Assembly (NCBI GenBank): GCA_963804845.1
Contig: CAWDSA010000002.1
Span: 318,533 to 382,532 of the forward strand
Direction: 5' to 3'
DNA: 64,000 nucleotides
DNA from: an uncultured Actinomycetota bacterium
GTDB taxonomy: Bacteria; Actinomycetota; Actinomycetes; Propionibacteriales; Nocardioidaceae
The notes under the pieces are model-generated. The model did no database searches, was not told the origin of the DNA, and saw only the letters and a list, made by a program, of their open reading frames with translations. Below are positions 6,204 to 44,082 of this stretch, one piece after another; within the stretch, counting starts at the first letter, position 1; every line of letters begins with the position of its first letter. The position numbers were made by a program, and so were the translations under genes.

Positions 6204-7852
6204 CAGAGGATGATCGGGATGAGCACGGGCAGGAGCAGCAGGATCAGGATCGCGCCGATGATGTCGAAGCTGATCCCCGACCTGATCATCTTGGTGATCG
6301 GCACCGTGCCGGAGCCGTAGACGATCGCGTTCTGCGGCGTCGAGACCGGCAGCATGAAGCCGAACGACGCGGCGAACGTCGCCGCCAGCGCAGGTGTCAG
6401 TGGATCGACCCCGGCGGCGTTGGCGAGCGGCAGGATGATCGGTACGACGACCGCGGCCGAGGCCGTGTTGGACGTCGTCTCCGACACCGCGATCGCGAGC
6501 ACCACCGCGAAGATGGTGATGGCGACGCCGCTGGTGATGCCGAGCGCGTTGTAGCTGCCCTTGCCGATGGTCTCGGCCAGGCCGGAGTCCTGCAGCAGCG
6601 CGCCGAAGATGACGCCGGTGCCGAAGAGCACGATGGTGCCCCAGTCGATCTTGCGCCGCGTCGCCCCAGGTCAGCGTGAACTCGCGCTTCGCCCAGTTGC
6701 GTGGGGAGCAGGAAGAGCAGCGCTGGCGCCGATGATGGCGACCACGCCCTCGTCGAGCCGGGTCGAGATGGTCACGTAGACTCGGAGTCGGCGCCGGCGA
6801 CCAGGGCCACGATGCCGGGGAAGATCCAGAGCGCTGACGGTGACGCAGAAGGCGACCAGCGTGTTCTTCTCCGCGCGGGAGAGCGCCGCCCATCCGCTCC
6901 CGCTCGGACTTCACGTAGTCCTCGACGCCGCTCAGCCGCCGGATCTCGGGCTTGTTGAGCGTCAGCAGGATGATGCAGAGCGCGACGAACATCAGCGCGC
7001 AGACCGGGAACGCCAGCCCCATCCACTGGGCGAACGGGATCGCCTCACCGGTCGACTGCTCGATCAGCTCACGCCCGATCAGGTTGGGCGGGCTGCCGAC
7101 CGGCGTCAGCAGGCCGCCGACGCTGGCGCCGTACGCCAGCATCAGCATCAGTGCGAAGCCGACCCGCAGCCGGGTCGGGTCGAACCCGTCCATGCTCTCG
7201 CCGCTCTCGATGCGCTGCTCCTGGATCAGGTTGGCGATGACGGTGAGGATGCCGAGCGCGGTCGGCAGCAGCATGGCGACGGTCGCGGTGTTGGAGACGA
7301 ACGCCGACAGCAGGGCGGTGATCGCGCCGAACGCGATGATCACGCGCATCGTGCTCCTGCCGACGCCGGGGAGCGCGAGGATCCGGAACGCGAACCGCTC
7401 GCGCGAGCCCGTGCTTGAGCATCGACTGGGCCAGGATGAAGGCGCCGATGAAGGTGAAGATCGTGCCGGAGCCGAACGGCGCGAGTACGGCGTCCGCCCC
7501 GTCCTCCCCACCCACGCCGAGCAGGATCAGCACCGACGGCGCCGAGCATGCCGGAGACCGGGATCGGGATCGGCTCGGTGATCCACGCGATGATCACCCC
7601 GCCCAGCACCGCCGCCACGGTGTGCTGCTCCTGCGGGATGTCGAGCGGCAGCAGGAAGATGACGATCGTCGTCAGCGGCGCCAGGACGAACCCCAGGGTC
7701 CTTCGCCTCAGCTCGAACCGCTCCTCGCGCTCCGACAGCTGCTGCTCCGCCACCCCCTTGTACGTCGTCCCCCCGAGCAGCGCCTGCTCTACATCAACGC
7801 GCTCGTTGCCACCCTTGGGTGCCGGCTGGTCGCTGGTTCCTGTCGTCGACAA
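6203..7852 (-). pseudogene. DASS (divalent anion:Na+ symporter, SLC13-like) transporter, at least 4 frameshifts
   Basis: Consecutive homologous segments lie in different frames: 7340..7969 (RTLGFVLAPLTTIVIFLLPLD...ITEPIPIPVSGMLGAV), 7069..7533 (GADAVLAPFGSGTIFTFIGAFILAQSMLKHGLA), 6141..7511 (AFGAITALLSAFVSNTATVAMLLP...GGLLTPVGSPPNLIG) and 6203..6631 (...SETTSNTASAAVVVPIILP...MLPVSTPQNAIVYGSG). Possible TTG start at 7852 after GGAGG. Confidence 0.8.
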
Positions 7853-8088
7853 TGTCGCCTCCGAGTCGGTAGTCCCCGTCCCAGCACCGTATCCACATTT
7901 ACCTTTGGGTCGCCTCACCCCGTTGGTCGGTGAGGAACCGCCGGTGACGCATCCACAACGAATGTGCACTTCAGGCCTAGCCCGGAGGCGTTGCAGAATG
8001 ATCCTCGATCAGCCCTGTCGGGAAGACCGCCCGCTTCTAGCGAGCACTTGGAGGCTCACGTGAGCACAGAGGGGAAGGGGACCCTCGG

Positions 8089-8528
8089 TTGCCCCGCTAC
8101 GTGCCGTCTGCGACATCTCCAGACGTACGGCGCCGGATGCAGCCACCAGCGACGCCGAGACACGCGACCGGAAGCTTGGCGACCGCAGCGCCGCACATTC
8201 TGCAGGTTTGCGCTATCGAGTCGACATTGCCCCAGAAGATGGCATCCGTCGCCGCGCGGACCTGGTATTCCCGAGGTTGCACATCGCGGTGTTCGTGGAT
8301 GGCTGCTTCTGGCAGGCCGCCCCGACCATGCGAGCTGGCCGAAGAGCAACGCCGCTTGGTGGAGGTCGAGAAAGCTTCGAGCGGAATGTTGTTCGTGATC
8401 GCGAGACCGACCAACTGCTTGAGGAAGCTGGTTGGGTTGTTCTGCGCATCCGGCAACACCAGCCTCCCGAGGAAGCCTCAGTTCGGCTGGTTGAGGTCGT
8501 TGCGTCTCGACGAGGACTGGCCGTCTAA
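8089..8528 (+). pseudogene. vsr: very-short-patch repair endonuclease (Vsr), about 4 frameshifts
   Basis: Vsr motifs are scattered over three frames: SPDVRRRM (8089 frame), QRRRDTRPE (7964 frame), GLRYRVDIAPEDGIRRRADLVFPRLHIAVFVDGCFW (8208 frame), PKSNAAWWRSRK (7964 frame) and ERNVVRDRETDQLLEEAGWVVLRI (8208 frame). Ends TAA 8526-8528. Confidence 0.8.
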
Positions 8529-8645
8529 CCGTCGTCGGCGGGGGGCTCTCGCTAGGGGAGTCTTCCAACGAGGCGTCCTGCGGACCTACCGAACGATCTC
8601 CTGCGCCTTTCTCGCGATAGGCGCCACCAGTCATCACGGACCGGG

Positions 8646-10559
8646 TTAGCGCAACCTCTTGAGCCTTCCTGGCGAAGTCCGACGATCCGAGCTCGCTGTC
8701 GAGAATGGCCTTGTAGTGCTGATAATGCTTCGCGACTCGCTCGTGCACCTTCGCCCAGGTGAGCAACGACGTACCCGCTTCTTCCGAGTCCTTGAGCAGT
8801 CCGGGAAGAAGCGCGTAGTGGCTTCCCGTGATGAACACACCCTGGATGGTGGGATGGGCCTGCTCCCTAGTTTGCTCACGTACCGCTCGAGTTGCTGTAG
8901 GTCGTCGACTGTCGCCGCGTGTCCTGCGCGCTTGATCTCGATGACGATCAACTGACCATCGCCCTTCAGCCCGAGGAAGTCGTACCGAGTCCGGTCATCA
9001 GGATCTAGGTCGGCGTTGCCCCACTCACGGAGTTGGGCAGTGACACTCCTTTCCTCGTACAGCACCTGCCACTCAGGGTTGATGAGCCAGGGTAGCTGGG
9101 CAATGAGATCGTGGAGGTTCTCGTCGCCGACCGTCGGTGCAGTCTCTGGAGCGTTCTGGACGATCATCGTGTAGAACTTCTCGACGATGTCGATCCGTCC
9201 CTTGACGACCTCGAGGATCGCGCGGCTTCTCGAGGACCTTCCAACCTTGAATGAACTCGAGCGCCTGCTGGAAGCGCTCCGGATCGTCAGCAGCCTCGTC
9301 GAGCTCGGTGATGTAGTCATGGAACTGCCGGTACTCGAATGCTCTGATGATGGTGTCAGCCAGCTTCTGGATGGTCCGTTCAGGCTGTGCCTCCGCGCCG
9401 CCGAGAGCGCGGATCAATTCTCTGGCCTGGCTCTCAGAGGGATTGTCAAGCATCTTGAGCCTGGACAGCAGCAGAGCGCATCTTCCTCGACGTCCTTCTC
9501 GGTCTGGTCTTCGCGCCTCGTGACGCGTTCGCGCAGTAGGCGCCGCGTCAGGGCCTCGCCCCATGTACGAAGCGCCTCGACGCCTTCGTCCTCCCAGTCG
9601 ATCTCCTGGCGATCGGTCGAGATCCGGTCGGACTCGTCGTCCGTCCCATCGTCGAGGTAGTCGGCTTCGATGACTCCGGTCAAATACTTGGTGCCGTGCT
9701 GCCCACTCGCGGTGGCCTCGACCTTGAAGAAGAATGGGGGCGCTTGTGCCGTCTTGCCATTGACGAGGATCGTGAAGCCTTGGAGTTCGGTCGCCAGCAC
9801 GGTCTTGGAAAAGCCCGCCGACCACCTGATCGTTCCGCCGTCGTCAAGAGCTCTCTTCCAGCATGCCTTCTGCTGGCTCTCTGGGTCTCGAAGTTGATTG
9901 CTGGCTCGCGCAGATCTTCGCCGTTGATCTTGATTGACATCTCTCCACGCACCACGCGACTGAAGCGTCGAGCCAGTGCCCTGTGGAGTGTGTCGACGTC
10001 CAGCGGACTCTTGTGCTTGAGGGACTCCATGGTCACTTGTGTGCCACTTCCGAACGGGAATCCTTCAGGCACGGGGCCGATCCGTCCCGGAACGTCGAGA
10101 ACCTTGGGGGCGGTGGCGTCGGACTTCAGCGATGCTCCATCAAGGTGGAAACTAGTGGCAACTCCCGCCTGGACTGTCGTGACCTTCATTGTTCGTCCTA
10201 GGCCGAACCCAGCAAGCTTACCGACACCCTTCCGACCCATGACTCGGCGGCCTTCCGGCGCTGGTTGCCCTGAGGCGCGGCGGTTGCGCCCGATCACAAG
10301 GTAATTGTTCTCGACCTCGTCCTCAGACATGCCGAGACCGTCGTCCACAAGAGAGACGGCACTACTCGTCGGCAAGTACTCACTAGGCGTCGGAACGGTG
10401 ATCTCGACCCTCGTTGCCCCTGAGATGTCCCAGGAGTTGGCGACAAGTTCTGCACACTGCCACGTCTCGCCGCTTGTACATCTGCGTACCGAGATGTTCG
10501 AGTGTTCGGCCCAGCACGGTGATCGTGAAGGTCCGATCATGGGCTTGGATATCCGTCAT
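8646..10559 (-). pseudogene. GHKL (HATPase_c-type) ATPase fused to a PD-(D/E)xK nuclease-like C-terminal domain, at least 5 frameshifts; candidate restriction or effector component
   Basis: My translation from ATG 10559: MTDIQAHDRTFTITVLGRTLEHLGTQMYKRRDVAV. It then shifts into 9680..10540 (AELVANSWDISGATRVEITVP...LVDDGLGMSEDEV...GRKGVGKLAGFGLG, which are the GHKL N and G boxes). It continues in frames 9414..9800, 9073..9825, 8646..9320 (RYDFLGLKGDGQLIVIEIKRAGH, a D...ExK motif) and 8056..8838. The C-terminal end is not resolved. The ATG overlaps the methyltransferase stop (ATGA 10556-10559). Confidence 0.7.
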
Positions 10560-11681
10560 TTGCCCGAGCTGCCTTTCAGTCTTGTCGCGTCAAACGAACT
10601 GTCAGCACGAACTTCGTGCGTGCAACGCGATATGGCGAGCGATGCCCTCTGCGAGGAGTGGGGGGACGGCGTTGCCGATCTGGCTGCTCGCATTTCCGCC
10701 TTGGTGCCGAACCAGAGAAAGTCGTCCCGGAATCCTTGCAGCTTGGCGGCCTCCAGATGCGTGATCGCACGGTCGGCCGCTGGATGGAGATACCTGCCCT
10801 TCTCTGGCTTCCAGAACTCGGTGCGGATAGTGACTGACGGGTCGTCCCATCTCAGGCGTCCCATGACGTCGGCGGACCCAGTGGAATGCCCGCGCCAACA
10901 TGGTGCGAGGAGGTGCTCGGGAAGGTCGTAGCGATTGCCGCCTGCCGGGATATGTCGGTACCTCTCGAGCGAGAGGTCGGTCGGCCGTCGGCCGACGTGT
11001 AGTTCGATCGTCTTGTAGCTGCCTCGGAACCGAGCTTGCCGTTGACCATTGCGCTGGTGGTTGGGAAGATCGAAGGTAGTCCACGGTCGGTGCGATGTCG
11101 CCGATTGCGTTTCGCACGGTCACCCAAGCACCTCGATCGGGAACGTGCCCCGTCGGCAGGCCGGGGTGCCTCGACGTCGCGGCGGCTACCGATGATCACC
11201 GCCCTCTTGCGGACCTGGGGTGTCCCAAACGTGGCAGCGTTGAGCACGCCGAACTCGACTCGGTATGCGGAGAGCCGCCCGCTTCGGTGGGTCTCCCGCC
11301 GCAGGTCTCGGAACTGACCGGACCTGAGGAAGTCGGCGACGTTCTCCATCACGAAGTAGCGCGGAGACGTCAAGGCCAAGGTCTCGACGTAGCGACGCCA
11401 GAGCGCATTCCTGGGATCACGCACGCGGCGCGCGCCGAGATTCGAGAAGCCCTACAGGGCGGGCCTCCGATGACCACGTCCACTGCGGATACATCTCCGC
11501 AGATCCAATCCGCGATGTCGCCTGTGTAAACGCGCGTCGACGTGTGGTTAGCTGCAAAGGTAGCGGCGGCATAGGCGTTGCGCTCGATGGCCTCAACAGT
11601 GTGAAAGTCGCCCGCGCGAACAAATCCTTCACTGAGGCCGCCAGCGCCTGCGAACAGGTCGAGGACGCGCAGCGCTGGCAT
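10556..11681 (-). pseudogene. DNA (cytosine-5) methyltransferase, at least 5 frameshifts
   Basis: Motif I LDLFAGAGGLSEGF and motif IV GGPPC lie in frame 11370..12095. One nucleotide is missing exactly at the PCQ codon (ccc tgt agg gct; inserting c gives PPCQGFSNLGARRVRDPRNALW). ENV (FVMENV) and QVRKR lie in 10852..11424. QIGNAVPPLLAEGIARHI lies in 10602..11123. RLRWDDPSVTIRTEF...ITHLEAAKLQGFRDDF lies in 10556..10864. Confidence 0.85.
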
Positions 11682-11934
11682 GCTAGCAACCCTAGTGGCT
11701 TGACACAGGTCACGACTCCCGTGTGGGTTCTCCGGCGCTGCGTGTCTCGAGATGGCGAACGCTACGGGCAGATCGAGGGGCACTGGACGGGTAGAACGGT
11801 GCGCCGCGACCGGCGAAATGGCATCCGTGCCTTCCTCGACGCGAGAGGCTACGAGCGACACTCTCCAATCTAAGGAGACTTCTTGGACTCGACACCCACG
11901 GGAGGTGCGCTGCCAGCGAAGGCGGTCCGCCTGT

Positions 11935-13119
11935 ATGACGCACTTTGTTCGGAAACGTGCGCCCAGCGTCTCTGAGATTGCTGACCTGGCTATCTCTCTG
12001 GCGGGAGAGCGGAACGGTGCGCCAGATGGCAGACCGAACGGCAGACCTGGCCTCAACTGGGGGGCCCGGATCGTTGACCACCCTCGTGGTACCACTCCTT
12101 CTCCGTTGCGGTGGCATCGAGGTGCCGAAGGTTGGAGTCCCCGGGAGGCCCGCCGGTGGGATCGACGTGCTCGCTATGGTTCCCGGCTACGAGTGGAGTC
12201 TCAGCGCCGATGGATTCGAGCGGTCCCTGGCCCAGTGCGGCTACGCCCACACTGCCGCAAACGCCGAGTGGGCGCCTGCCGAACGCAGCTCTCTTCGCCC
12301 TGCGCCAGAGTTCTCACGGCACCCAGCAGGTGCCAGCACTGGTCGTCGCCAAGCTCGCCTGCAAAGAAGTTGGCTGCCGGCGTCCGCACGCCAGCTCTGG
12401 AGGCGCGGGTAGCAGCACACGGCAACTTTGGGGCAAGCCGGGACGATGCTCGACGGAATGCGGTGCTCTACTACGAGGTCGCCGAGTCCCTCGGCATGCG
12501 TCCGGTCGTGTTCGTGACGGGATGCGAGTGTGCCCTGCCAGCCGTACATCGGTCGTGGCGAGGCACTAATGGCTGTAGATCTGATAGCCCACCAGAACGA
12601 AGGTGATGATTGGCTTGGTCGTCACCGCGGAAAACTTTGCTCGTCGATGGCGAAGCACATCAGTGGCACAAGTCAACGCGGGAACTTGGTCCCGAGCAGG
12701 CGTTCCGACAGGCCGACGCGGACGATGCATGGAGTGTGCTTGAGGCACATCTTCGCGCTCAGGGGACCTCGGCTGAGTCATGGGTGGCCGCCGTAGGGCG
12801 CGCATCTCGCGCCTCGCGGACAACGCTTACGGCGCCTCGCCCGGGGTTCGTCCACTACAACCTGGTGAATATCCGGCGATGTCTGACCGAGGCGAATGAT
12901 CCTGCATTGGGCGACGCCCGCAGCGATGGATCCCTCGAGCCTTTTGTCGATTCGGCTGGCTGTACGTTGCTCGTCGAAAGTGGGGTCGAGGTGCGTGCTG
13001 GCGACCCGGTGCTGGATGTGAGGATGTCGGCGGGTCCGCATCCAGAGACCAACAGTCTTTTTGAGATCCAGTCTCAACCCGTACCTCGTGACAATCAGAT
13101 CTGGGAGATCTTCGACTAG
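11935..13119 (+). pseudogene. thymidine/pyrimidine-nucleoside phosphorylase-fold protein (divergent, short N-terminus), about 3-4 frameshifts
   Basis: [50 protein letters not shown] (11945 frame) aligns by eye with this window's own DeoA: [61 protein letters not shown]...VPALVVAKLACKEVG (12111 frame) matches PADKKLYALRD...IPLIASSIMSKKIA. FGASRDDARRNAVLYYEVAESLGMRPVVFVT lies in the 11752 frame. The C-terminal AGCTLLVESGVEVRAGDPVLDV lies in 12610..13119. Confidence 0.6.
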
Positions 13120-15696
13120 TGCAGAACTACACATGCTTCTGGCATCCCGAACTGGGGTATGGCGAGCGCGCCATCGACGATCCGTGCGATCAGTGCGGGC
13201 GTCCGATGGACCATCCGTTGAACGAGCCGCCTGACCAGGTCGGTGAGTACCGGATCGTCGCCACATTGGACCGCGGCTACTACGCGGCGACTTACGTGGC
13301 GGAGCAGGCTGGCGTAATCACGCGTCGGGTCTGTCTCAAGATCGCCCCCGCCGAGTTGTACGAACGGCTCGCCAAGGACTTCGAGGCGGAGTGCCGCGCA
13401 CATCAGCAGGTCGCTGAAGGTACGGCTCACCTGGTCGAGATTCAGGGCGCCTTTCGGGTGCCGGTGAATTTTGGAGCGGACCCGGACGCCGTCGACTGTC
13501 AAGTGGCAGTCCTCGATTACGTGCCCGGAGTTTCGTTGCGCAGCATCCTCGAGGGAGAGACGCAAATATCTACTCCGCTCCAGTGGCGCAGATAGCGATG
13601 GATCTGCTCGAGTTACTTGGCGAGCTCGAGCAGCGCCAGATGTACCACAACGATCTACACCCTGGAAACATCATCGTCCGCGAACTCGAAGACCGGGAGC
13701 AACGCGGCGGAGACCTGATCGATGCCTTCGTCCAGACCATTGCCGTCGACATGGGGTCGGTGCCTCGATAGCAGCAAGACCGGCGACGAGTCCGACCGGC
13801 TAGCTGACACCCATCAGGTGACTCAACACCTGATGAAGCTCGCTCGTCGCCTCAGTTCGGATCCTGCGGATGCGTCCGACGCCGACTATCGGTTGAGCCG
13901 AACGCTGAACGACATCGCCACTCTGTTGAAGCCGCGACAGCCTCCGGCAGCGTGGACAGCGCTACGCCGACTTGCAGCGAATGATTCGCACGGCCTTTGA
14001 CATCGCCAACTCTCCTTGGAAAGCGCCGTCGGGAGGCCTGTCGAGCATGTCCGACTCGTACAACGCGCAGACCATGCACGCGTGGTTCATACCAAGGCTG
14101 CTTGTGGACCCAGACGGAAACTGGCAGCGCCGTGTTGAGGCTCCCGGACCACTCGTCGTCACCGGAATGCGCGGTTGCGGGAAGACGATGCTCCTCCGGC
14201 GCCCTGCAGTTCCACGCGCGCGCCATCCTCGCCCAAGAACGTGTCTCGGCAACGGAGGGCACGACTCAGGAAATCGCACAGTTGCTTCGTAACGATGGCT
14301 ATGTCGGGCTCTATGTCTCCTGTGGACGTCTACTCGACGGCCTGGGCCAACCTCAGACTGACGCCAACGAGCCTTTCACCCGGCTATTCCTCTGCTATGC
14401 GAGGGAAGCCCTCCTAGCCCTGCGTCACCTGAGCGAAGTCGCTGGACTCGACGCCGGTTCGCCGTCGCCTGGCACAATCGCCGACATCGTCAACGGCCTC
14501 GTTGACCACGCCAAGCTCCCATCTGGTGCAAGTTCCTTCGTGCTAGAGCGGGAACTCGATTCCATGCTCCAGACGTTGGAGAGAGGCCACTCCCAGTATC
14601 AACTCAACAGCAGCCCGTCGAACGCAATGCCCAGGCTCGCCGACGCAGTTCGACGATCATCGCGACTGTGGGAGGGCCAGCGAGTCCTTTTCCTTCTGGA
14701 CGACGTGTCAACCCGGAACCTCCGCGAAGACTCAATCAGAACCCTGCTGTCGCGGTTGATGTTCACGAATGAGACCTGCGCCTTCAAGGTGACAACGGAG
14801 GCTCAGACGCTGGAACTGGTCCTCAAGTCACCCGGCCTAGTCGAATCTGCCCGGATTGGTCGCGACTACGAGACCTTCGATCTCGCTGCAGACATCCACG
14901 AGCTTCTCCGCGCGGATCACGGACGAAAAGGGCGTGCCACTTCATCGCCCAAGTACTCGAGAAGCGCAGCGAGCTCACAGGCCGACACCCGACCAGAACC
15001 CCACTTGAGGTACTCGGCGACCAGTCGCTCATCGACATCGCGCGCAGCATCGTCAACTCGACGGCGTCGTCCACCGAGCGCAAGCACGTATATCGCGGCA
15101 TGAGCGCTATAGCGGCTGTGTGCGTCGGCGACATCGGAGACGTCATCTCGATCTATCAGATGATACCTCGACAACGCCGATCGCGCAGGTCGCACGACGA
15201 CGTTTCCCGTTGCCGACGAGTTCCAGTCCAAGGCGTTCCAGGAGTACTGCTCGAAAGAGATCTGGAGACTCAACCGTCGTGCCGGGCGTCTCAAGAACTT
15301 CGCCGATGGGTTCGCCCTTGCAGCACACGAACTCCTCATGCAGTCGGGCCGCGCGGCGGGGCCAGAGCGCCTCCGGCAGTACAGCAGCATCTACGTTCGA
15401 GTAACGACAGGCGACCAAGAGCGACAGCTCCAGCAACTGCGCGAGCTCGTCCACGCTGGCGTCTTCGTGCTCACAGGCGCGCCAGACGCGCCTAGGACGA
15501 AGACACGAGACGGTGACCCCCTCACCCAGTACATCCTGACCTACAGGAAGCTTCTCGGAATCTCGCGCTATATCGGTCTCGCACAGCGGGATCGGTTCGA
15601 GCTGTCGGGTAAGAGCCTCGAAGAGTGGCTCAACGGCGAAGGCGACACTAGCGAGGTCTTGAAACGAAACGTCCAGACCGAATCGCCCGAGGGTGA
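13119..15696 (+). pseudogene. Ser/Thr protein-kinase-like domain fused to a P-loop NTPase (ORC/Cdc6- or STAND-like AAA) with a C-terminal wHTH-like region; at least 6 frameshifts
   Basis: GTG 13119 overlaps the upstream stop (TAGTG). Kinase N-lobe YRIVATLDRGYYAATYVAE...RRVCLKIA lies in 13119..13595. Catalytic loop YHNDLHPGNIIV and AVDMGS lie in 13583..13771. Walker A VVTGMRGCGKTMLLR is at 14164-14187. Walker B RVLFLLDDVS is at about 14681-14710 in 13997..15103. The C-terminus YRKLLGISRYIGLAQRDRFELSGKSLEEWL lies in 15338..16078. The 3' end is uncertain. Confidence 0.6.
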
Positions 15697-16848
15697 GGAA
15701 GGTGAAGATCCTCCGACGACCAAGAGCGGGCACCACGGGGCGGGGGCGTATCGCGCACCGCCCGAAGACAGTCAAAGTCGAACCGGGACCGACACTGTTC
15801 GACGGACCTGGCGAGGCCTCGCTCACCGCTTCCAGCTCAACTGTCGTCGAACATCAGGTCCTGACTGCGATCCCTCGCGAGATCAGCGCTCAAGAACTGA
15901 GAAAAAATCGACATTACAGAGTTCATTGTCGGCCTCGGATTCGAGGACCGCGCCATCGAGTCGTTCGGTCGCGTTCTGGAGACGGTGGACCCGCCGCGAA
16001 CCTACGCTGTTCGCTACCCGGTTCCTGCTCACGCCCCGGAGATCCTTGCAAAGCTTGAAGCGGCCGGAAGCGCAGTAGAGCATATCCCAAGCACCGATCA
16101 CGACTTCGCTCAACAGCCGGACCCTGGCCTCGGCCTCGTCGACATCACAGGGCTGTCGAAACGGTTCATCTACTCATCGATCCGCAACCTGCTGCTTCGA
16201 GATGGCAAAGTGATCGTTGCTCACACGGCCTCGGAGACGAGCTCACCCGCTGCAGGACGAGGTGCGTAGAAGCGGCTCGAACTGACTAGAAACCTCGACA
16301 TCTTTGCTCGCCTCGAAGCCTTCAATGACATCCTGACAGGCGAGTCGCCGAGTTACTCATTCGTGAGGCTCGGCGAGGGGAAGTAGCCCACGACGGGCGC
16401 CGTCGCGTGCTGCTCGCAGCAAGTTCCGCGAAGTACGAGCGGCTCTTCTCGCTGCTCCAAGAGCGCGACTACGACCACGTAGAAATAGCGATCCCAATGG
16501 ACGGTTCTCCTCAGGCCGAACTCGCCGAACTCGCCGGGTTTGTCGCGGCGCAGGACTACCACGCGTGCGATCTGCGGCCGATGGACTGAGAAATCTGCAG
16601 TTGCTCGTCGGCGAAATCGAGAGGGACTACTGGCGGTATTACGGCGACCAGAACTTCAACGTCGAAGTCGGCCTGACGGGATCGAAACTGCATGCGGTGG
16701 CGATGGCAATCGCCAGCGCGGATCTGAAGTTCGCTCAAAGGTCGGGACGTCGCCCCGGCGTCATACGATCCGGAGCTCGCCATTCTCCTCAGGGTCGGGG
16801 CAGACACGCTTCTATCTGGTTGAACGGCGGCGGCAGGTGGGGGAATGA
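15693..16848 (+). pseudogene. Rossmann-like protein with weak Csa3/CARF-type motifs; frameshifts and in-frame stops
   Basis: A possible GTGA start/stop overlap at 15693-15696 is conditional on the upstream gene terminating in a third frame, which I could not establish. A frame switch occurs at the A6 run 15902-15907. My translation is KIDITEFIVGLGFEDRAIESFGRVLETVDPPRTYAVRYPVPAH...LVDITGLSKRFIYSSIRNLLLRDGKVIVAHTA, followed by an in-frame TAG at 16267-16269. It continues with ...RLFSLLQERDYDHVEIAIP... and NFNVEVGLTGSKLHAVAMAIASADLKF. Family assignment is tentative. Confidence 0.35.
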
Positions 16849-17132
16849 CGTACGTCATCGACGTCTTCCCCCGTTCGGAGTTCGCGCCGACGAGGTTGCT
16901 CCCGACCCGGCCCTCGATGCCGCATTGGAAAGGCATGCACTGAACGCTACGGCGTTGAGAGCCGATACCGACGAAGACGTCGACTGTCCGCGGGGACACC
17001 CAGCCCAAGTGGCCTCTTGGCTTGGTCGTTCGTACCTCGTCGTCCTATTGGCGGGCTTCGTCCGGTGTCAGCGAAACCCGACCGACCGCGGCCGGAGCGA
17101 GGTCGCCTGCGCGAGCGGCGGAATGGGCTCAG

Positions 17133-37917: not shown

Positions 37918-38896
37918 GTGACAGCCACTTCGCTCTCCCCCGACAGGCTCGACACCGGGGACGTCGCGGAGATCACCCGGAACGACGCCTCGCTGCGCCG
38001 CTTCCTGCACGGTCTCCCGGGCGTCGACCAGGTCGGCGCCGAGGCTCGGGCCGCCGGTCTCGGCACCCGCTCCATCAAGACGACGTCGAAGGCCTACGCG
38101 CTCGACCTGGCGATCCGGATGGTCGACCTGACCACCCTCGAGGGCCAGGACACCCCGGGCAAGGTCCGGGCGCTGTCAGCCAAGGCGATGCGTCCCGACC
38201 CGGCTGACCCGACCTGTCCCGCCGCCGCGGCGGTCTGCGTCTACCCCGACATGGTCGGCATCGCCAAGGAGACCCTCGGCGACTCCGGCGTCAACGTCGC
38301 CGCCGTCGCCACCGCCTTCCCGAGCGGTCGCGCCGCGATGGACATCAAGCTGGCCGACACCCAGGACGCGGTCGAGGCCGGCGCCGACGAGATCGACATG
38401 GTCATCGACCGCGGCGCGTTCCTCTCCGGTCGCTACCTGCAGGTCTTCGAGGAGATCGCGCAGGTCCGCGCGGCGTGTGCGGCGAATGAGCGCGCACCTC
38501 AAGGTCATCTTCGAGACCGGCGAGCTGCAGACCTACGACAACGTACGGCGCGTCAGCTGGCTCGGCATGATGGCCGGCGCCCACTTCATCAAGACCTCCA
38601 CCGGCAAGGTGCAGCCCGCCGCGACCCTGCCGGTCACGCTGATCATGCTCGAGGCGGTCCGCGACTGGCGCGAGGCCACCGGCCAGATGATCGGCGTGAA
38701 GCCGGCCGGCGGCATCCGCAACGCCAAGGACGCCATCAAGTACCTGGTCATGGTCAACGAGGTCGCGGGTCCCGACTGGCTCGACCCCGACTGGTTCCGG
38801 TTCGGCGCCTCCACGCTGCTCAACGACCTGCTCATGCAGCGCACCAAGATGACCACCGGTCGCTACTCCGGCCCCGACTACTTCACGCTGGACTGA
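37918..38896 (+). CDS. deoC: deoxyribose-phosphate aldolase (long actinobacterial form), one apparent frameshift near 38470-38490
   Basis: N-terminal two thirds lie in 37918..39546 (...VCVYPDMVGIAKE...ADEIDMVIDRGAFLSGRYLQVFEEIAQVRAAC). The remainder lies in 38477..38896 (AHLKVIFETGEL...FIKTSTGK...GVKPAGGIR). Confidence 0.85.
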
Positions 38897-41274: not shown

Positions 41275-41553
41275 ATGCACCTCGACCCCGGCGCCGTGCG
41301 CAGCGGCTGGAACCACGCGCAGAACGCGGACGACGAGATCCGTGACGCCCTCGGCCGCATCGCGGAAGCGGCGGGGAGCGGCATGGCCGACCTCGCCAGC
41401 TGTCTGAGCGACGCGGCCTCCGACATGCGCGGCGTGCTCGAGGTCGTCTCGGCCGTGGTCGCCGAGCACGGGACCAACGTCGAGGCCTGCATCGCCGACT
41501 TCCAGGCGACCGACGGGCAGAGCGCAGGTGAGTTCCATGGGTTGGCTCGATGA
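41275..41553 (+). CDS. small helical protein, EspC/DUF2580-like (type VII secretion-associated; tentative)
   Basis: 92 aa predicted all-helical, C-terminal ...ACIADFQATDGQSAGEF. Overlaps the next ORF. Confidence 0.45.
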   Translation: MHLDPGAVRSGWNHAQNADDEIRDALGRIAEAAGSGMADLASCLSDAASDMRGVLEVVSAVVAEHGTNVEACIADFQATDGQSAGEFHGLAR

Positions 41554-43039
41554 CCGTGTGAGCGACCTCCGCGGAGTGCTCGCCGACCTCCAGGACCTCG
41601 ACTTCTGGCCGCCGTGGGACGCCGCCCAGACCCTGGTCGACCTCGTCGCCCGCGCCGTCCAGATCGCGACCGAGCCCCCGGACCCCGATCCGGAGAACGT
41701 CCGCGACGCCGCCGCGGCCTGGCGGATGATCGGCTCGGACGCCGACGCGGCGGTCGGCGACCTGGAGCGGGTGCCCGAGGCCATCACCGCGGCGGTCTGG
41801 GACGGGGAGACCGGCAACGCCCTGCGGACGTCCGTCGGTCGGCTCTCCCGACGTTCCGACACCGTCGGCCCGGCCGCCCGCGGCGTCGAGCAGGCGCTGA
41901 CCACCCTCGCCGACGCGATGGCGGACGCCCGCACCCGCCACCAGCAGGCCGACGACCAGCTCCGCGACAACCTCGAGCTGAGCTGGGGCGACCTCTGGCC
42001 GTGGGAGCTCGTCGACTGGCTGAAGGGCGTCGCCGAGGGCGTGATCCACGCGGTGGAGGAGGCGATCGGCGCCTACTCCGACGCGTCCACCGCGGTCCGG
42101 ACCGCCGAGCGCGACATCGTCGCGGCGATGGACGAGATCGACCTGCCCGACCACCTCCCCGACTCCCCCGGAGTCAGCGCGGTCGCGGTCGTCAACGGGT
42201 GGGACGACGACCGCGGCCCGCTCGCGGGCGGTGCGCTGGAGCGCTACGACGGCGCCTACGACAACCTCTCGCCCGCCCAGCAGCAGGCGGTCCGTGACGC
42301 GCTGGCCGCTGCCGGCAGCGACGCCGAACGCGCCTGGATCATGGCCGGGGTCGCCTCCGGCCTGGGCGGCGCCGCACTCACCCGCTACATGGATCAGCTC
42401 GGCACGCTCACCCCGGCCCAGCTCCGTGACCTCGACCCCACGCGCTCGGCCGACGGCCTCACCCAGCCCGACCAGACGACCTGCGGCTCGTCCACGCTGG
42501 TGATGTCGCGGATGCACAACGACCCGGCCTACGCGATGTGGGTCCTCACCGGCTACAACCCGGAGACCGGGGAGACCGCGCCTCCGGGCCAGACGGTCGA
42601 GGACCGGTTCAAGGCCGAGTCGCTCGAGATGCACGACCGCACCAACTCCCCGACCGACCGCGACGGCGACCTCCAGTTCCCGTGGCCCGAGGCGATCGGC
42701 ACCCAGCCGTGGGCGCTGGCCAACGAGATGTCGGCCGAGGGCGGCTCGGGCGCACCGGGCACGGAGTACGACGTCCGGGTGACCGACCCCGACGACCGAG
42801 GCCGCAACTACGACGAGATCGCCGCCGCCAGCGAGGACGGGCACACCGTGCCGCTCTACATCGGCGACACCACCCACCCCGGCCACGTCGTGCTCGTCAC
42901 CGCCAGCGACAACGGCACCCTCACCATCTACGAGCCGGCCAACGGGGAGACTGTCACCGTGACTCGCGACGACTTCGTGAACGGCGACCTCGGGGTCGCC
43001 GGCTGGGACGAGCCATGGTTCGCGGTCACGCCACGGTGA
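41537..43039 (+). CDS. WXG-motif helical N-terminal domain fused to a papain-like cysteine-peptidase-like C-terminal domain (candidate secreted toxin/effector)
   Basis: The N-terminal 230 aa are helical and carry AITAAVWDGETGNAL (WxG). The C-terminal LTQPDQTTCGSSTLVM (Gln-x5-Cys) and HPGHVVLVTASDNGTLTIYEPANGE (His, then Asn/Glu) fit a papain-fold triad. ATG 41537 preferred over GTG 41528. Confidence 0.6.
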   Translation: MGWLDDRVSDLRGVLADLQDLDFWPPWDAAQTLVDLVARAVQIATEPPDPDPENVRDAAAAWRMIGSDADAAVGDLERVPEAITAAVWDGETGNALRTSVGRLSRRSDTVGPAARGVEQALTTLADAMADARTRHQQADDQLRDNLELSWGDLWPWELVDWLKGVAEGVIHAVEEAIGAYSDASTAVRTAERDIVAAMDEIDLPDHLPDSPGVSAVAVVNGWDDDRGPLAGGALERYDGAYDNLSPAQQQAVRDALAAAGSDAERAWIMAGVASGLGGAALTRYMDQLGTLTPAQLRDLDPTRSADGLTQPDQTTCGSSTLVMSRMHNDPAYAMWVLTGYNPETGETAPPGQTVEDRFKAESLEMHDRTNSPTDRDGDLQFPWPEAIGTQPWALANEMSAEGGSGAPGTEYDVRVTDPDDRGRNYDEIAAASEDGHTVPLYIGDTTHPGHVVLVTASDNGTLTIYEPANGETVTVTRDDFVNGDLGVAGWDEPWFAVTPR

Positions 43040-44082
43040 GAACGGCTCTGATCGCGGCGGGGCTGCTGCTGCTCGCGGGCTGCAGCCAGGACCCGGCCGG
43101 GCTGCCCACCTCCGTCGACTACGAGCGGGCCGAGCGGGTGTGGTCAGACCCGTGGCTCGCCCCCGGCACGGCCTCGGTGCCGGAAGCCGGCTGGGGCTCG
43201 CCCGACGGCTACGTACGCCGGGATGCCGGCACCCGCACCACCCGCTACACCGCAGGCAGCCCGCAACAGGCACTGCAACGTGAGATCGCGTCGGCCCAGG
43301 ACGCCGGCTGGATCCTCACCGGCCTGGTCTGTGACGGCCTCACGGCCTCGCTGGCCCGGGGCACCGGCCTCGACGACGGCGCGATCGCCGTGCTGGAGGT
43401 CGCCGCCGCCGGCCGCGGGGCCGAGGTCGTGGTGACCGGCTACGTGCCCCACCACCTCGACGGGTCGTGGCCCGCCCCGTCCACGGACCCCGCGTTCGAC
43501 GGCTCCTGCCGCAACGCGGCCGGTCAGCGTCCCCTCGCCGACGACGTGTCGCTGGGCGAGCCGTTCGACGGCGGCGAGGAGCCGGCGGAACCCGACACCA
43601 CGACCTGGCAGCGGGAGTCGCCCAGCGACGAGGAGCAAGCGCTGCTCGACGCTGTCAACGCCGACCCCTGGGTCGCGGGGCTCGGACTCGTCCTCGACTC
43701 AGAGCTCGCCGCCGACGACACCTTGCGCCGGGCCCCGACGGCCGACGCCACGGCCACCGACGCGCTGCTGGCGGACGTGGTGGCCGACATGGCCGGGTGG
43801 GAGCTGACCTGGATGTCGTGCGGCCGCGGCCGGGCCACCGAGGCCACCGCCCGCCTCGTGACCGACGACGGCGTCGCCGTGGCGCGGCTGACCGGCCTCC
43901 CGGACCGCACCGACGTGACGGTGACCCTGCCGCTGCCGGAGGCGCCCCCGCCTGACTGGATCGCCGACGTACCCGCGCTGAACTCCCCCGCCTGCCTGAC
44001 GAGCACTCCGCGCCATCGGCGCATCGTCATCCAGGGCACCCCGGTGACCACCGTCGCCGAGTCGCAGCCGGTCGCCGGCTGA
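43036..44082 (+). CDS. lipoprotein (candidate cognate immunity or partner)
   Basis: GTG 43036 overlaps the upstream TGA (GTGA). VRTALIAAGLLLLAGCSQDP is a lipobox. 348 aa with no recognised domain. Confidence 0.6.
   Translation: MRTALIAAGLLLLAGCSQDPAGLPTSVDYERAERVWSDPWLAPGTASVPEAGWGSPDGYVRRDAGTRTTRYTAGSPQQALQREIASAQDAGWILTGLVCDGLTASLARGTGLDDGAIAVLEVAAAGRGAEVVVTGYVPHHLDGSWPAPSTDPAFDGSCRNAAGQRPLADDVSLGEPFDGGEEPAEPDTTTWQRESPSDEEQALLDAVNADPWVAGLGLVLDSELAADDTLRRAPTADATATDALLADVVADMAGWELTWMSCGRGRATEATARLVTDDGVAVARLTGLPDRTDVTVTLPLPEAPPPDWIADVPALNSPACLTSTPRHRRIVIQGTPVTTVAESQPVAG

Follow-up and report, generated by a model that had tools for sequence, protein, structure and literature searches.

According to the article text of PMC13444075, the arabinanase EatA, reported in 2026, is the first demonstrated antibacterial toxin of actinobacterial type VII export. 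ESX-4 of Mycobacteroides abscessus exports it with the WXG100-like proteins TapA1 and TapA2, and the lipoprotein EatI blocks it (article text of PMC13444075; bioRxiv 10.64898/2026.08.24.746431). The same article text describes 'eat-like' loci across Actinomycetota, in which extracellularly acting toxins go together with lipoprotein or membrane immunities, and gives 47% of the payloads of such loci as unannotated (PMC13444075). The subject here is a cassette of three genes, A, B and C, in a 64-kb stretch of DNA from an uncultured member of the Nocardioidaceae (assembly GCA_963804845.1, contig CAWDSA010000002.1, positions 318,533 to 382,532), the whole of which is called the window. Judged from its gene order and predicted products, the cassette has the architecture of an eat-like locus with a different payload. 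It is proposed that A and B are exported by a secretion system of type VII (T7SS), that B carries a C39-like cysteine peptidase acting as a toxin, and that lipoprotein C provides immunity; this full chain is regarded as evenly poised between being right and being wrong, and its parts are graded separately below.

Three further groups of described systems bear on this proposal. In PE/PPE and Esx pairs, the YxxxD/E motif of the small partner and the WxG motif of the other protein form a composite type VII export signal, and C-terminal enzymatic extensions are known in PE/PPE-type substrates, for example in the lipase LipY (PMC7028111). In 2012 fusions of papain-like toxins to WXG domains were predicted; at that time Tox-PLC39 was known only with type II secretion, type VI secretion (T6SS) and PVC delivery, in Bacteroidetes, Chloroflexi and Firmicutes (PMC3482391). 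Finally, Cpe1 (Escherichia coli T6SS) and StbD-CT (Citrobacter, CdiA-like) are C39-family toxins that cleave Gly-Gly in GyrB and ParE (PMC12136450; bioRxiv 10.64898/2026.05.07.723447).

Proteins A and B as a Candidate Secretion Pair

A search for homologues of B returned 92, most of them ~490-530 aa long; some are shorter fragments, and one reaches 600 aa. Conservation, Pfam counts and the AlphaFold2 model were drawn from 35 homologous sequences. The model (pLDDT 90.8, pTM 0.80) is helical over residues 1-300 and alpha+beta over the last 200. Pfam WXG100_2 and WXG100 each match 32 of the 35 (best E 2.8e-8 and 8.3e-8, respectively, the WXG100 count being at E<=0.05), PPE matches 25 (best E 1.6e-6) and T7SS_signal (PF21725) matches 14 (best E 1.1e-6), and Foldseek against the Protein Data Bank (PDB) pairs the N-terminal part with PPE4, PPE41 and PPE15 at probability 0.90-1.0; a direct sequence search of full-length B against the PDB gave no match, and the C39 toxins described below were reached by a domain profile only. 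W88 and G90 of the WxG motif, which lies in the segment VWDGETG, are among the invariant positions, as are G93, Q310, P311, C316, G317, S318, H366, H450, P467 and G470. An earlier note on this DNA, made by a model from the letters alone, had read this long helical region as being of WXG type, and the matches bear that out.

Every full-length locus (~45 loci) has a homologue of A directly upstream of its B. The 19 aligned members have in common C72, G85 and, where the second helix ends, the motif [F/Y/W]76-x-x-x-D80, in which D80 is nearly invariant and the aromatic is mostly F or Y, with W in one member; position 76 is Leu in the two Mycobacteroides members and Phe in the window. A weak profile match of the A family to EsxG (3q4h) aligns the motif onto YVAQD, and by this alignment it appears to sit where the YxxxD/E type VII export motif lies. 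The description of the 92-aa protein as EspC-like and overlapping B has likewise held, as PF10824 (T7SS_ESX_EspC) is matched by seven of the 19 members (best E 3.7e-6) and the two genes overlap by 17 nt; the sole Pfam match of the window's own A is a weak one to DUF6317. The WXG100, WXG100_2, PPE, T7SS_signal and EspC matches, the PPE folds, the invariant WxG, the conserved [FYW]xxxD and an ESX locus that contains the cassette (described below) together point to A and B as a type VII (ESX-type) secretion substrate pair, for which export is predicted. That B in particular is a T7SS-type substrate is held with good confidence.

The C39-Like Peptidase Domain of Protein B

There is little doubt that the C-terminal domain of B has a C39-like fold. 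Foldseek matches it to the C39 domains of ComA (3k8u, 5xe8, 5xe9) and PCAT1 (7n87), most chains at probability 0.99-1.0, and C39 peptidase domains of these two proteins stand within the top three hits for B. Template modelling scores, normalised by target, lie at 0.53-0.68 with the ComA chains and at 0.59 with 7n87, and the AlphaFold2 per-residue confidence of the domain has block means of 77-95. Resemblance extends to the SpeB zymogen, of which 1dki is aligned with up to 296 columns of B, and to Josephin-type enzymes; Pfam Peptidase_C70 is matched, sub-threshold, by nine of the 35 homologues (best E 1.6e-4). The order of active-site residues read earlier, with QPDQTTCGSS followed by HPGHVVLV, is indeed present, and Q310, C316 and H450 are invariant not only in the 35 homologues but also across three domain architectures (28 sequences), whereas position 466 may be Asp, Glu or Asn, with Gln in one member. 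The spacings Q310-x5-C316 and H450-x15-[E/D/N/Q]466-P467 equal those of C39 peptidases. Gln310, Cys316, His450 and Glu466 are therefore the predicted catalytic set. The papain-like assignment made from the letters alone thus survives modelling, Foldseek and the domain profile, and can be narrowed from the papain clan to a C39-like domain with its Cys and His conserved.

The C-terminal domain profile, built from the 28 sequences of three architectures and spanning 205 positions, also finds the StbD-CT chains 8ssm, 12aj and 8ssk (E 4e-4 to 4e-3) and 9l5u (E 7.5e-4), which was deposited as a DUF4150 protein and is presumably Cpe1. These matches are confined to the His/Asp half, profile positions 95-187 of 205; there, HMMER aligns H450 and the YEP of E466 with the GHW histidine and the YDP aspartate of StbD-CT, whose triad is Cys183, His258 and Asp275 (bioRxiv 10.64898/2026.05.07.723447). 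As the closest solved sequence relatives of the domain are Cpe1/StbD-CT toxins, B might be a gyrase-cleaving toxin of that kind, with C not the immunity protein. This is considered quite improbable. Besides covering one half of the domain at E ~1e-3, the match sets a Cys-to-His interval of ~135 residues in B against ~75 in StbD-CT, and the B domain has a large conserved insertion (MHxRTN...WP..GTxP...GSG.PG). Further, no entry or translocation domain is recognisable in B, and no small cytoplasmic immunity gene accompanies the cassette, Cpi1-type immunities being cytosolic proteins of 79-239 aa. Sec-exported variants of the enzyme make a cytosolic target unlikely, and cytosolic stand-alone paralogues that keep the catalytic set intact would attack the gyrase of their own cell. 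It is the extracytoplasmic partner together with these tolerated cytosolic paralogues that makes a gyrase-cleaving mode unlikely.

It is also conceivable that the fold serves another chemistry and that the Cys-His domain deamidates glutamine or acts as a transglutaminase, which would fit a toxin as well as a housekeeping protein. A Janibacter homologue (L024) gives a weak match to PF15644, 'Papain fold toxin 1, glutamine deamidase' (E 0.0036, below cut-off), and papain-fold toxins with such activities have been described (PMC3482391). However, apart from the PF15644 hit the structure and sequence matches go to C39 and C70 peptidases, the spacings of the Gln-Cys and His-Asp/Glu pairs are those of C39 enzymes, and a chemistry other than proteolysis is considered improbable.

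The helical pre-domain ahead of the peptidase may be a pro-region. Its segment SGLxGxALxRY...LDP also precedes the peptidase in WXG100-fused, Sec/Tat-signal and lipobox variants, and its C-terminal half always accompanies the peptidase domain. A conserved Gly-Gly auto-processing site was sought in the linker of B and in the inter-domain linker of C and was rejected, as GG is not conserved in either alignment. A single-sequence PDB search with a short stand-alone paralogue of the domain found nothing relevant.

The Lipoprotein and Its Joint Exchange with the Peptidase Domain

Protein C was described earlier as a lipoprotein with no recognisable domain, and it has no Pfam match above curated cut-offs and no NCBIfam match. 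Its lipobox in the window is LLLAGC, with Cys23, and a lipobox is found in 20 of 22 scanned homologues, the other two having the lipobox-like ANAC and VGC. Signal peptide and lipobox occur in C of Nocardioides, Aeromicrobium, Knoellia, Janibacter, Phycicoccus, Propionicimonas and Mycobacteroides, and lipobox-like sequences in C of Segniliparus and of a metagenome-assembled genome (MAG) of the Pseudonocardiales. The 16 close homologues have in common the lipobox, a VPHHLD..WP motif and four invariant cysteines besides that of the lipobox (C99, C158, C262 and C320), which would be consistent with an oxidising compartment. In distant lineages D..R, DPW.AP, GW, Cys, H.D..WP and Cys are retained in the N-terminal domain, and in Aeromicrobium and Mycobacteroides this domain is all that C consists of. 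The AlphaFold2 model (pLDDT 83.6) has two alpha/beta domains; its matches are weak and non-specific (BamC N-domain, KA1, PsbP/DcrB/LpqN-like), and they suggest no function for C. In Segniliparus rugosus (L057, 11548-13304) the B homologue is followed by two genes in tandem, of 278 and 273 aa, that are related to the N-terminal domain of C and may have arisen by duplication of an immunity-like gene.

Everywhere compared, C diverges more than the other two genes of the cassette, and it is proposed to be the cognate immunity or inhibitor partner of the peptidase. The evidence that carries this proposal comes from Mycobacteroides, in which B, annotated as hypothetical, is found very often in M. 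abscessus, M. chelonae, M. franklinii and M. salmoniphilum; in the collection, 702 blocks are indexed with the exact protein of the M. abscessus B used as query. Two types of cassette exist, both of them within M. franklinii and both within M. salmoniphilum. Between the types, identity is 90-99% for A and 91-98% for the N-terminal ~300 residues of B, but 58-61% for the peptidase domain of B and 41-46% for lipoprotein C. At the DNA level, two loci (L041 and L042) are 93-100% identical up to about codon 270 of B, with identity dropping over codons ~270-300 (one 84% window); they are 53-77% identical from about codon 300 of B to the end of C, and 92-100% identical beyond C after one transitional 85% window. 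A joint block of low identity, with breakpoints near codon 295 of B and at the end of C and near-identical DNA on both sides, indicates that peptidase domain and lipoprotein were swapped as one module. On this pattern the exchange would mark a cognate specificity pair under conflict, the signature of toxin and immunity, and it lends support to the earlier suggestion that the lipoprotein is an immunity partner. A weaker trend in the same direction separates Knoellia from Janibacter (N-terminal part 93%, domain 81%, lipoprotein 51%).

In the M. abscessus-chelonae group (M. abscessus L087/L088, 7692-10252; L035-L042; L055) the cassette encodes proteins of 98 aa and of 526 or 531 aa and a lipoprotein of ~224 aa, and is flanked by four LCM-type methyltransferase genes and GST-pntAB. 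An identity of the M. abscessus homologue with the SigM-regulon operons Mab_0375-0376 or Mab_1286c-1284c (PMC13491425) could not be confirmed, and no GGAACCG -35 motif was found upstream of the M. abscessus A gene.

Distribution and the ESX-Embedded Cassette

Scanning one genome per species turned up 87 stretches that encode a relative; 78 distinct loci among them were retained. About 45 of the 78 have the order A-B-C, counting B-C cases in which A is visible but too divergent for tblastn, and the order is kept, with translational overlaps, across Propionibacteriales, Micrococcales and Mycobacteriales. A three-gene arrangement that recurs in ~45 genomes is not a matter of chance. In non-syntenic loci, conservation is limited to A, B and C.

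One of these loci supports the type VII link that had been drawn from the WxG motif. In a Propionicimonas MAG (L030) the genes run WXG100 (74 bits), RDD-like membrane protein, EccD, EccC, A, B, C and a subtilase that occupies the mycosin position, so that the cassette lies between eccC and mycP. The EccC protein has 1337 aa and three FtsK/SpoIIIE domains and its homologues are annotated EccC/EccCa, by which the gene is confirmed as eccC; as a query its best 120 hits were in Propionibacteriaceae and Actinomycetales only, making the query uninformative on Nocardioides. The link of the cassette to an ESX locus rests on this one MAG.

It might nevertheless be supposed that B is an unsecreted cytoplasmic protein whose N-terminal region merely resembles T7SS substrates, the lipoprotein gene being simply adjacent. 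The Pfam WXG100 score of the window's B, 26.0 bits on residues 51-131, is just under the 27.3 cut-off, and no T7SS is seen in the window. On the other hand, the overlapping three-gene order is kept across several actinomycete orders, one cassette is embedded in an ESX locus, WxG and [FY]xxxD are both conserved, and the peptidase domain co-varies with C; an unsecreted B is considered very improbable.

Other Architectures and Stand-Alone Paralogues

An exhaustive profile search found 1036 clusters (50% identity) at E<=1e-3 and 583 at E<=1e-10, a figure obtained with a whole-protein profile in which some matches may be to the N-domain only. None of the best 150 profile matches exceeds 600 aa, which leaves no Rhs or CdiA-type scaffolds among them. 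Apart from the cassette form, proteins of ~350 aa fuse a canonical short WXG100 domain (FDWxGxDA), through a Gly/Ala-rich linker, to the same pre-domain and peptidase (L045-L050, L053 and L054, ~9600-10700); L052, grouped with them, is a 250-aa form without the WXG100 domain. In further variants Sec/Tat signals or a lipobox stand ahead of the same pre-domain and peptidase.

A stand-alone form of 165-260 aa has no signal peptide, has intact catalytic residues and a dN/dS (ratio of nonsynonymous to synonymous divergence) of 0.27-0.48. It occurs in L010, L012, L013, L019, L020, L033, L072, L074-L076, L078 and L080, at about 10001-10700 or 13200-13640 in locus coordinates, and its first helix is like helix 1 of B. 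In the nucleoside-catabolism cluster of Nocardioides it adjoins the udk-like gene, in L078 and L074 it is found at the site of the window's A-B-C, and in six genomes it coexists with the cassette form.

A Model of Cassette Function and Its Main Rival

These observations can be assembled into a model of how the cassette may work. In this model A, a helix-turn-helix protein with a C-terminal [F/Y]xxxD, would pack on the WXG100/PPE-like N-domain of B, and the resulting helical bundle would present a composite export signal. An EccC-type ATPase encoded elsewhere in the genome may recognise this signal, upon which the T7SS would export the complex and B would take its pre-domain and C39-family cysteine peptidase out of the cytoplasm, possibly as a zymogen. 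The peptidase would then act beyond the cytoplasmic membrane, on an envelope protein or peptide of neighbouring actinobacteria, while C, a disulfide-bonded lipoprotein on the outer face of the producer's membrane, would bind and neutralise the cognate peptidase. Extracytoplasmic action is suggested by C being a lipoprotein in every lineage examined and by the Sec/Tat and lipobox variants of the enzyme, and a lipoprotein antidote would imply an envelope target. The A-B heterodimer, its export, the peptidase activity, the action outside the cytoplasm and the immunity role of C are all predictions.

Several results weigh against this model, or narrow it. The Foldseek matches of B have weak E-values (0.04-0.1 overall, 0.04-0.07 for the C39 domains) and the Pfam Peptidase_C39 model finds no match to B at E<=1; for the latter reason, and for the longer Cys-His interval, the domain is called C39-like only, that is, a remote relative and not a member of the curated C39 family. 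The fold of C is uninformative on its function. The window contains no match to EccC, EccD or mycosin and no open reading frame (ORF) above 715 aa, as had been observed before for the T7SS core genes, and within 10-kb flanks the other 77 of the 78 related loci have no ESX core genes either. The related ESX locus L089 has a different substrate pair, not A-B-C. The ~350-aa WXG100-fused proteins have no conserved neighbour, hence no lipoprotein, and the stand-alone form is under purifying selection yet partnerless, which is awkward if the enzyme harms its producer. In the Nocardioidaceae no part of B is as well conserved as the peptidase domain (63%, with 54% for the N-domain), and a different C-terminal domain was found in none of the 92 B homologues; by these comparisons the pattern in this family is not that of a polymorphic toxin. 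The polymorphic character claimed earlier for the cassette thus applies to Mycobacteroides and, mildly, to Knoellia and Janibacter, but not to the Nocardioidaceae.

The local history of the cassette points in the same direction. At least 10 other Nocardioides-type loci have it in the same nucleoside-catabolism cluster, with B identities of 48-85%. Against the closest relatives, the synonymous divergence (dS) and dN/dS were 0.39-0.59 and 0.11-0.37 for A, 0.43-0.48 and 0.22-0.26 for B as a whole gene (dN/dS 0.18-0.29 by domain), and 0.66-0.70 and 0.44-0.56 for C, the latter dN/dS being the highest in the region; the corresponding values were 0.31-0.41 and 0.09-0.22 for the aldehyde dehydrogenases and adenosine deaminase, and 0.49-0.50 and 0.23-0.29 for the MpaB-like and udk-like genes. 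The synonymous divergence of the cassette equals that of the flanking housekeeping genes, and the local pattern is vertical and conserved, not hypervariable. The cassette had been said to interrupt a nucleoside-catabolism cluster; its neighbours are indeed nucleoside-catabolism genes, but the shared site and matching dS make the interruption old and vertically inherited rather than a recent insertion.

From these data arises the main rival explanation, that of a housekeeping envelope enzyme, in which A and B would again be a T7SS substrate, the peptidase would process or remodel an envelope component of its own producer, for instance a peptide of the cell wall or a protein that is secreted or lies at the surface, and C would be its membrane anchor, regulator or substrate. 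This explanation, a serious one that is nonetheless thought unlikely, would account for the shared chromosomal site, the ordinary dS and low dN/dS of B, the C-terminal domain that is better conserved than the N-domain and is nowhere replaced by an unrelated one, and the partnerless paralogues, which show the enzyme to be tolerated without immunity. Precedent may be seen in EssH, a T7SS-linked cell-wall hydrolase with a role in secretion itself (PMC13059805), and envelope remodelling has been speculated for SigM/ESX-4 operons (PMC13491425). However, the clean exchange of peptidase and lipoprotein in near-identical Mycobacteroides backgrounds is hard to explain by housekeeping, the fast divergence of C is, like module exchange, typical of conflict systems, and the cassette is patchy among genomes, other Nocardioides carrying it in unrelated contexts.

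Several observations accompany those on distribution. In L089 (15645-17477), from a MAG related to that of L030, a 125-aa helical protein that ends in AFDAADGD (FxxxD) lies beside the mycosin gene and adjoins a 481-aa Gly/Ala-rich protein, the two forming a different candidate substrate pair. Locus L034 was considered as a near-conspecific with a replaced cassette (B 48% identical) and rejected, the DNA being 87.5% identical with many gaps, so that the difference reflects frameshift noise; over the whole locus the DNA is ~88-94% identical to the window with many indels, and protein identities are misleading. The literature searched for a link between Nocardioides and T7SS held nothing useful.

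Gene Coordinates and Surroundings

The window has a GC content of 70%, and its proteins are closest to those of Nocardioides, Aeromicrobium and uncultured soil Actinomycetota. The cassette (Table 1) consists of three overlapping, co-directional ORFs, with GC content at third codon positions (GC3) of 0.90 (A), 0.95 (B) and 0.93 (C), values typical of real genes in a genome of 70% GC. With coding-type GC3 and an order that recurs in other genomes, the ORFs called earlier at this place can be taken as real. A ribosome-binding site (AGGTGA) lies 5 nt upstream of the ATG of B, for which an in-frame GTG at 41528 would be an alternative start, giving 503 aa. Coupling of B and C through a GTGA overlap had been proposed; the overlap exists (GTG 43036-38, TGA 43037-39), but the start it implies for C is the less likely one. 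An in-frame ATG at 43015 gives a 355-aa protein with the N-terminus MVRGHATVRTALIAAGLLLLAGC, which resembles homologue N-termini (MVRRHAAL...), and C is placed at this start on account of that fit; it probably begins there, overlapping B by 25 nt.

Table 1. Window positions of the cassette genes and of the features assigned to them.
Feature	Position	Strand	Basis or remark
Gene A, 92-aa predicted helical partner (EspC/PE-like, Tap-like)	41275..41553	+	GC3, Pfam, position upstream of B
F76-Q-A-T-D80 of A, [F/Y/W]xxxD motif, end of helix 2	41500..41514	+	Family alignment
Gene B, 500 aa: WXG100/PPE-like N-domain, helical pre-domain, predicted C39-like cysteine peptidase	41537..43039	+	AlphaFold2, Pfam, Foldseek
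B residues 1-210, helical T7SS-substrate-type domain (WXG100/WXG100_2/PPE-like)	41537..42166	+	Pfam, Foldseek
W88-D-G90 of B, WxG in turn between two long helices	41798..41806	+	Conservation; model helix boundaries
B residues 211-300, helical pre-domain	42167..42436	+	Segment SGLxGxALxRY...LDP; Foldseek
B residues 301-500, predicted C39-like (clan CA) cysteine peptidase domain	42437..43036	+	Foldseek; domain profile
Q310 (42464-66) to C316 (42482-84), predicted oxyanion-hole Gln and catalytic Cys, QPDQTTCGS	42464..42484	+	
H450 (42884-86) and E466 (42932-34), predicted catalytic His and third triad residue	42884..42934	+	
Gene C, predicted lipoprotein, two alpha/beta domains, 355 aa (probable start)	43015..44082	+	348 aa if GTG 43036 is the start
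Lipoprotein signal peptide of C, MVRGHATVRTALIAAGLLLLAGC, lipobox LAGC, lipidated Cys 43081-83	43015..43083	+	Read from sequence

The cassette is preceded by a phosphopentomutase-like gene, deoC and two aldehyde dehydrogenase genes and followed by MpaB-like, udk-like (P-loop), adenosine deaminase and thymidine phosphorylase genes. An ORF scan of the window showed no further small ORF with coding-type GC3 in the cassette, and a promoter and terminator scan found nothing, a scan of this kind being uninformative at the GC content of the window. Public sequencing runs contain only related soil-metagenome sequence, at no more than 24% of words, and none of them is labelled RNA. The deoC gene (37918-38896) lies in two reading frames, with a break near 38470-38490; its N-terminal part is read in the frame of 37918 and its C-terminal part, out of register with it, in the frame of 38477, the window having 7 extra nt (2 + 5) relative to L003 in GCGGCGTGTGCGGCGAATGAGCGC, and the split could be either a real pseudogene or an assembly indel. 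Farther away, a low-GC island at ~7600-17000 (59-65% GC against 70-73% around it) has no high-GC3 ORFs and contains fragments of a type II restriction enzyme (9680-10540, minus strand) and of a C5 cytosine methylase (11370-12095, minus strand), as well as a CARF-Ser/Thr kinase-AAA defence gene (PADLOC PDLC01925, profile length 1187) broken over three ORFs (13119-13595, 13997-15103 and 15338-16078). It is probably a horizontally acquired defence island, decayed or hit by indel errors.

Significance and Comparison with Known Systems

If the model holds, a T7SS payload so far unknown gains a testable identity, as a C39-like peptidase with defined catalytic residues and a candidate immunity lipoprotein, in a family that is large (at least 583 clusters) and common in the clinically relevant M. 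abscessus/chelonae group. An envelope target would add a new mode of action to the C39-type toxins, the known antibacterial ones of which cleave gyrase inside the cell, and type VII-mediated competition would extend to soil Nocardioides. Should the housekeeping explanation be correct instead, the cassette would encode a conserved T7SS-exported envelope protease with a lipoprotein regulator, a pair that has no counterpart in the literature searched. More doubtfully, and judged against the article text of PMC13444075, the cassette might supply the first protease payload in the competition repertoire of the actinobacterial T7SS (T7SSa) and the first such payload in non-mycolate soil actinomycetes, C39-like and directed at an envelope target, restrained by a diversifying lipoprotein, and with stand-alone paralogues that are domesticated or serve as a reservoir.

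Among known systems, the C39 domains of ABC exporters (ComA, PCAT1 and LahT) provide the best structural matches and the same spacing of Gln, Cys, His and Asp/Glu. Unlike them, the B domain has no transporter, has an insertion of ~60 residues between Cys and His, and has no double-glycine leader substrate apparent near the cassette. With PE/PPE and EspA/EspC pairs the cassette shares a helix-turn-helix partner of ~95 aa (YxxxD/E-type) upstream of a larger WxG protein; it differs in lacking PE/PPE signature motifs and a nearby EspG chaperone gene, in that the EspC model matches only some A members, and in that the aromatic of the motif is Phe in the window.

The similarity to Cpe1 and StbD-CT, although remote, includes the order of Cys, His and Asp, the aligned His and Asp, and the fusion of a peptidase to a delivery domain. 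Those toxins are delivered by T6SS or contact-dependent inhibition in Gram-negative bacteria, act in the cytoplasm and have small cytosolic immunities, whereas the cassette is of T7SS type and encodes a 355-aa lipoprotein. As in polymorphic toxins such as Tox-PL1 and Tox-PLC39, the domain occurs on varied trafficking modules (PPE-like, short WXG100, Sec/Tat, lipobox), and in Mycobacteroides it is swapped together with the downstream gene. In contrast to them, the Pfam Tox-PL models are unmatched but for one weak hit, and Rhs or filamentous scaffolds are absent, as are polyimmunity arrays.

EatA/EatI matches the cassette in overall design. The payloads differ, EatA being a GH183 endo-arabinanase and B a predicted C39-like cysteine peptidase, as do the number of partner genes (two for EatA, one in the cassette), the host, which here is a Nocardioides-type monoderm without arabinogalactan or mycolate, and the location of the cassette in a nucleoside-catabolism cluster. 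The present cassette is known from its genes alone, and on these it shares with EatA/EatI a small WXG100-like partner, a toxin candidate that joins a helical N-terminal bundle to an enzymatic C-terminal domain, a lipoprotein encoded downstream whose immunity role would imply an extracytoplasmic target, and an assignment to the actinobacterial T7SSa.

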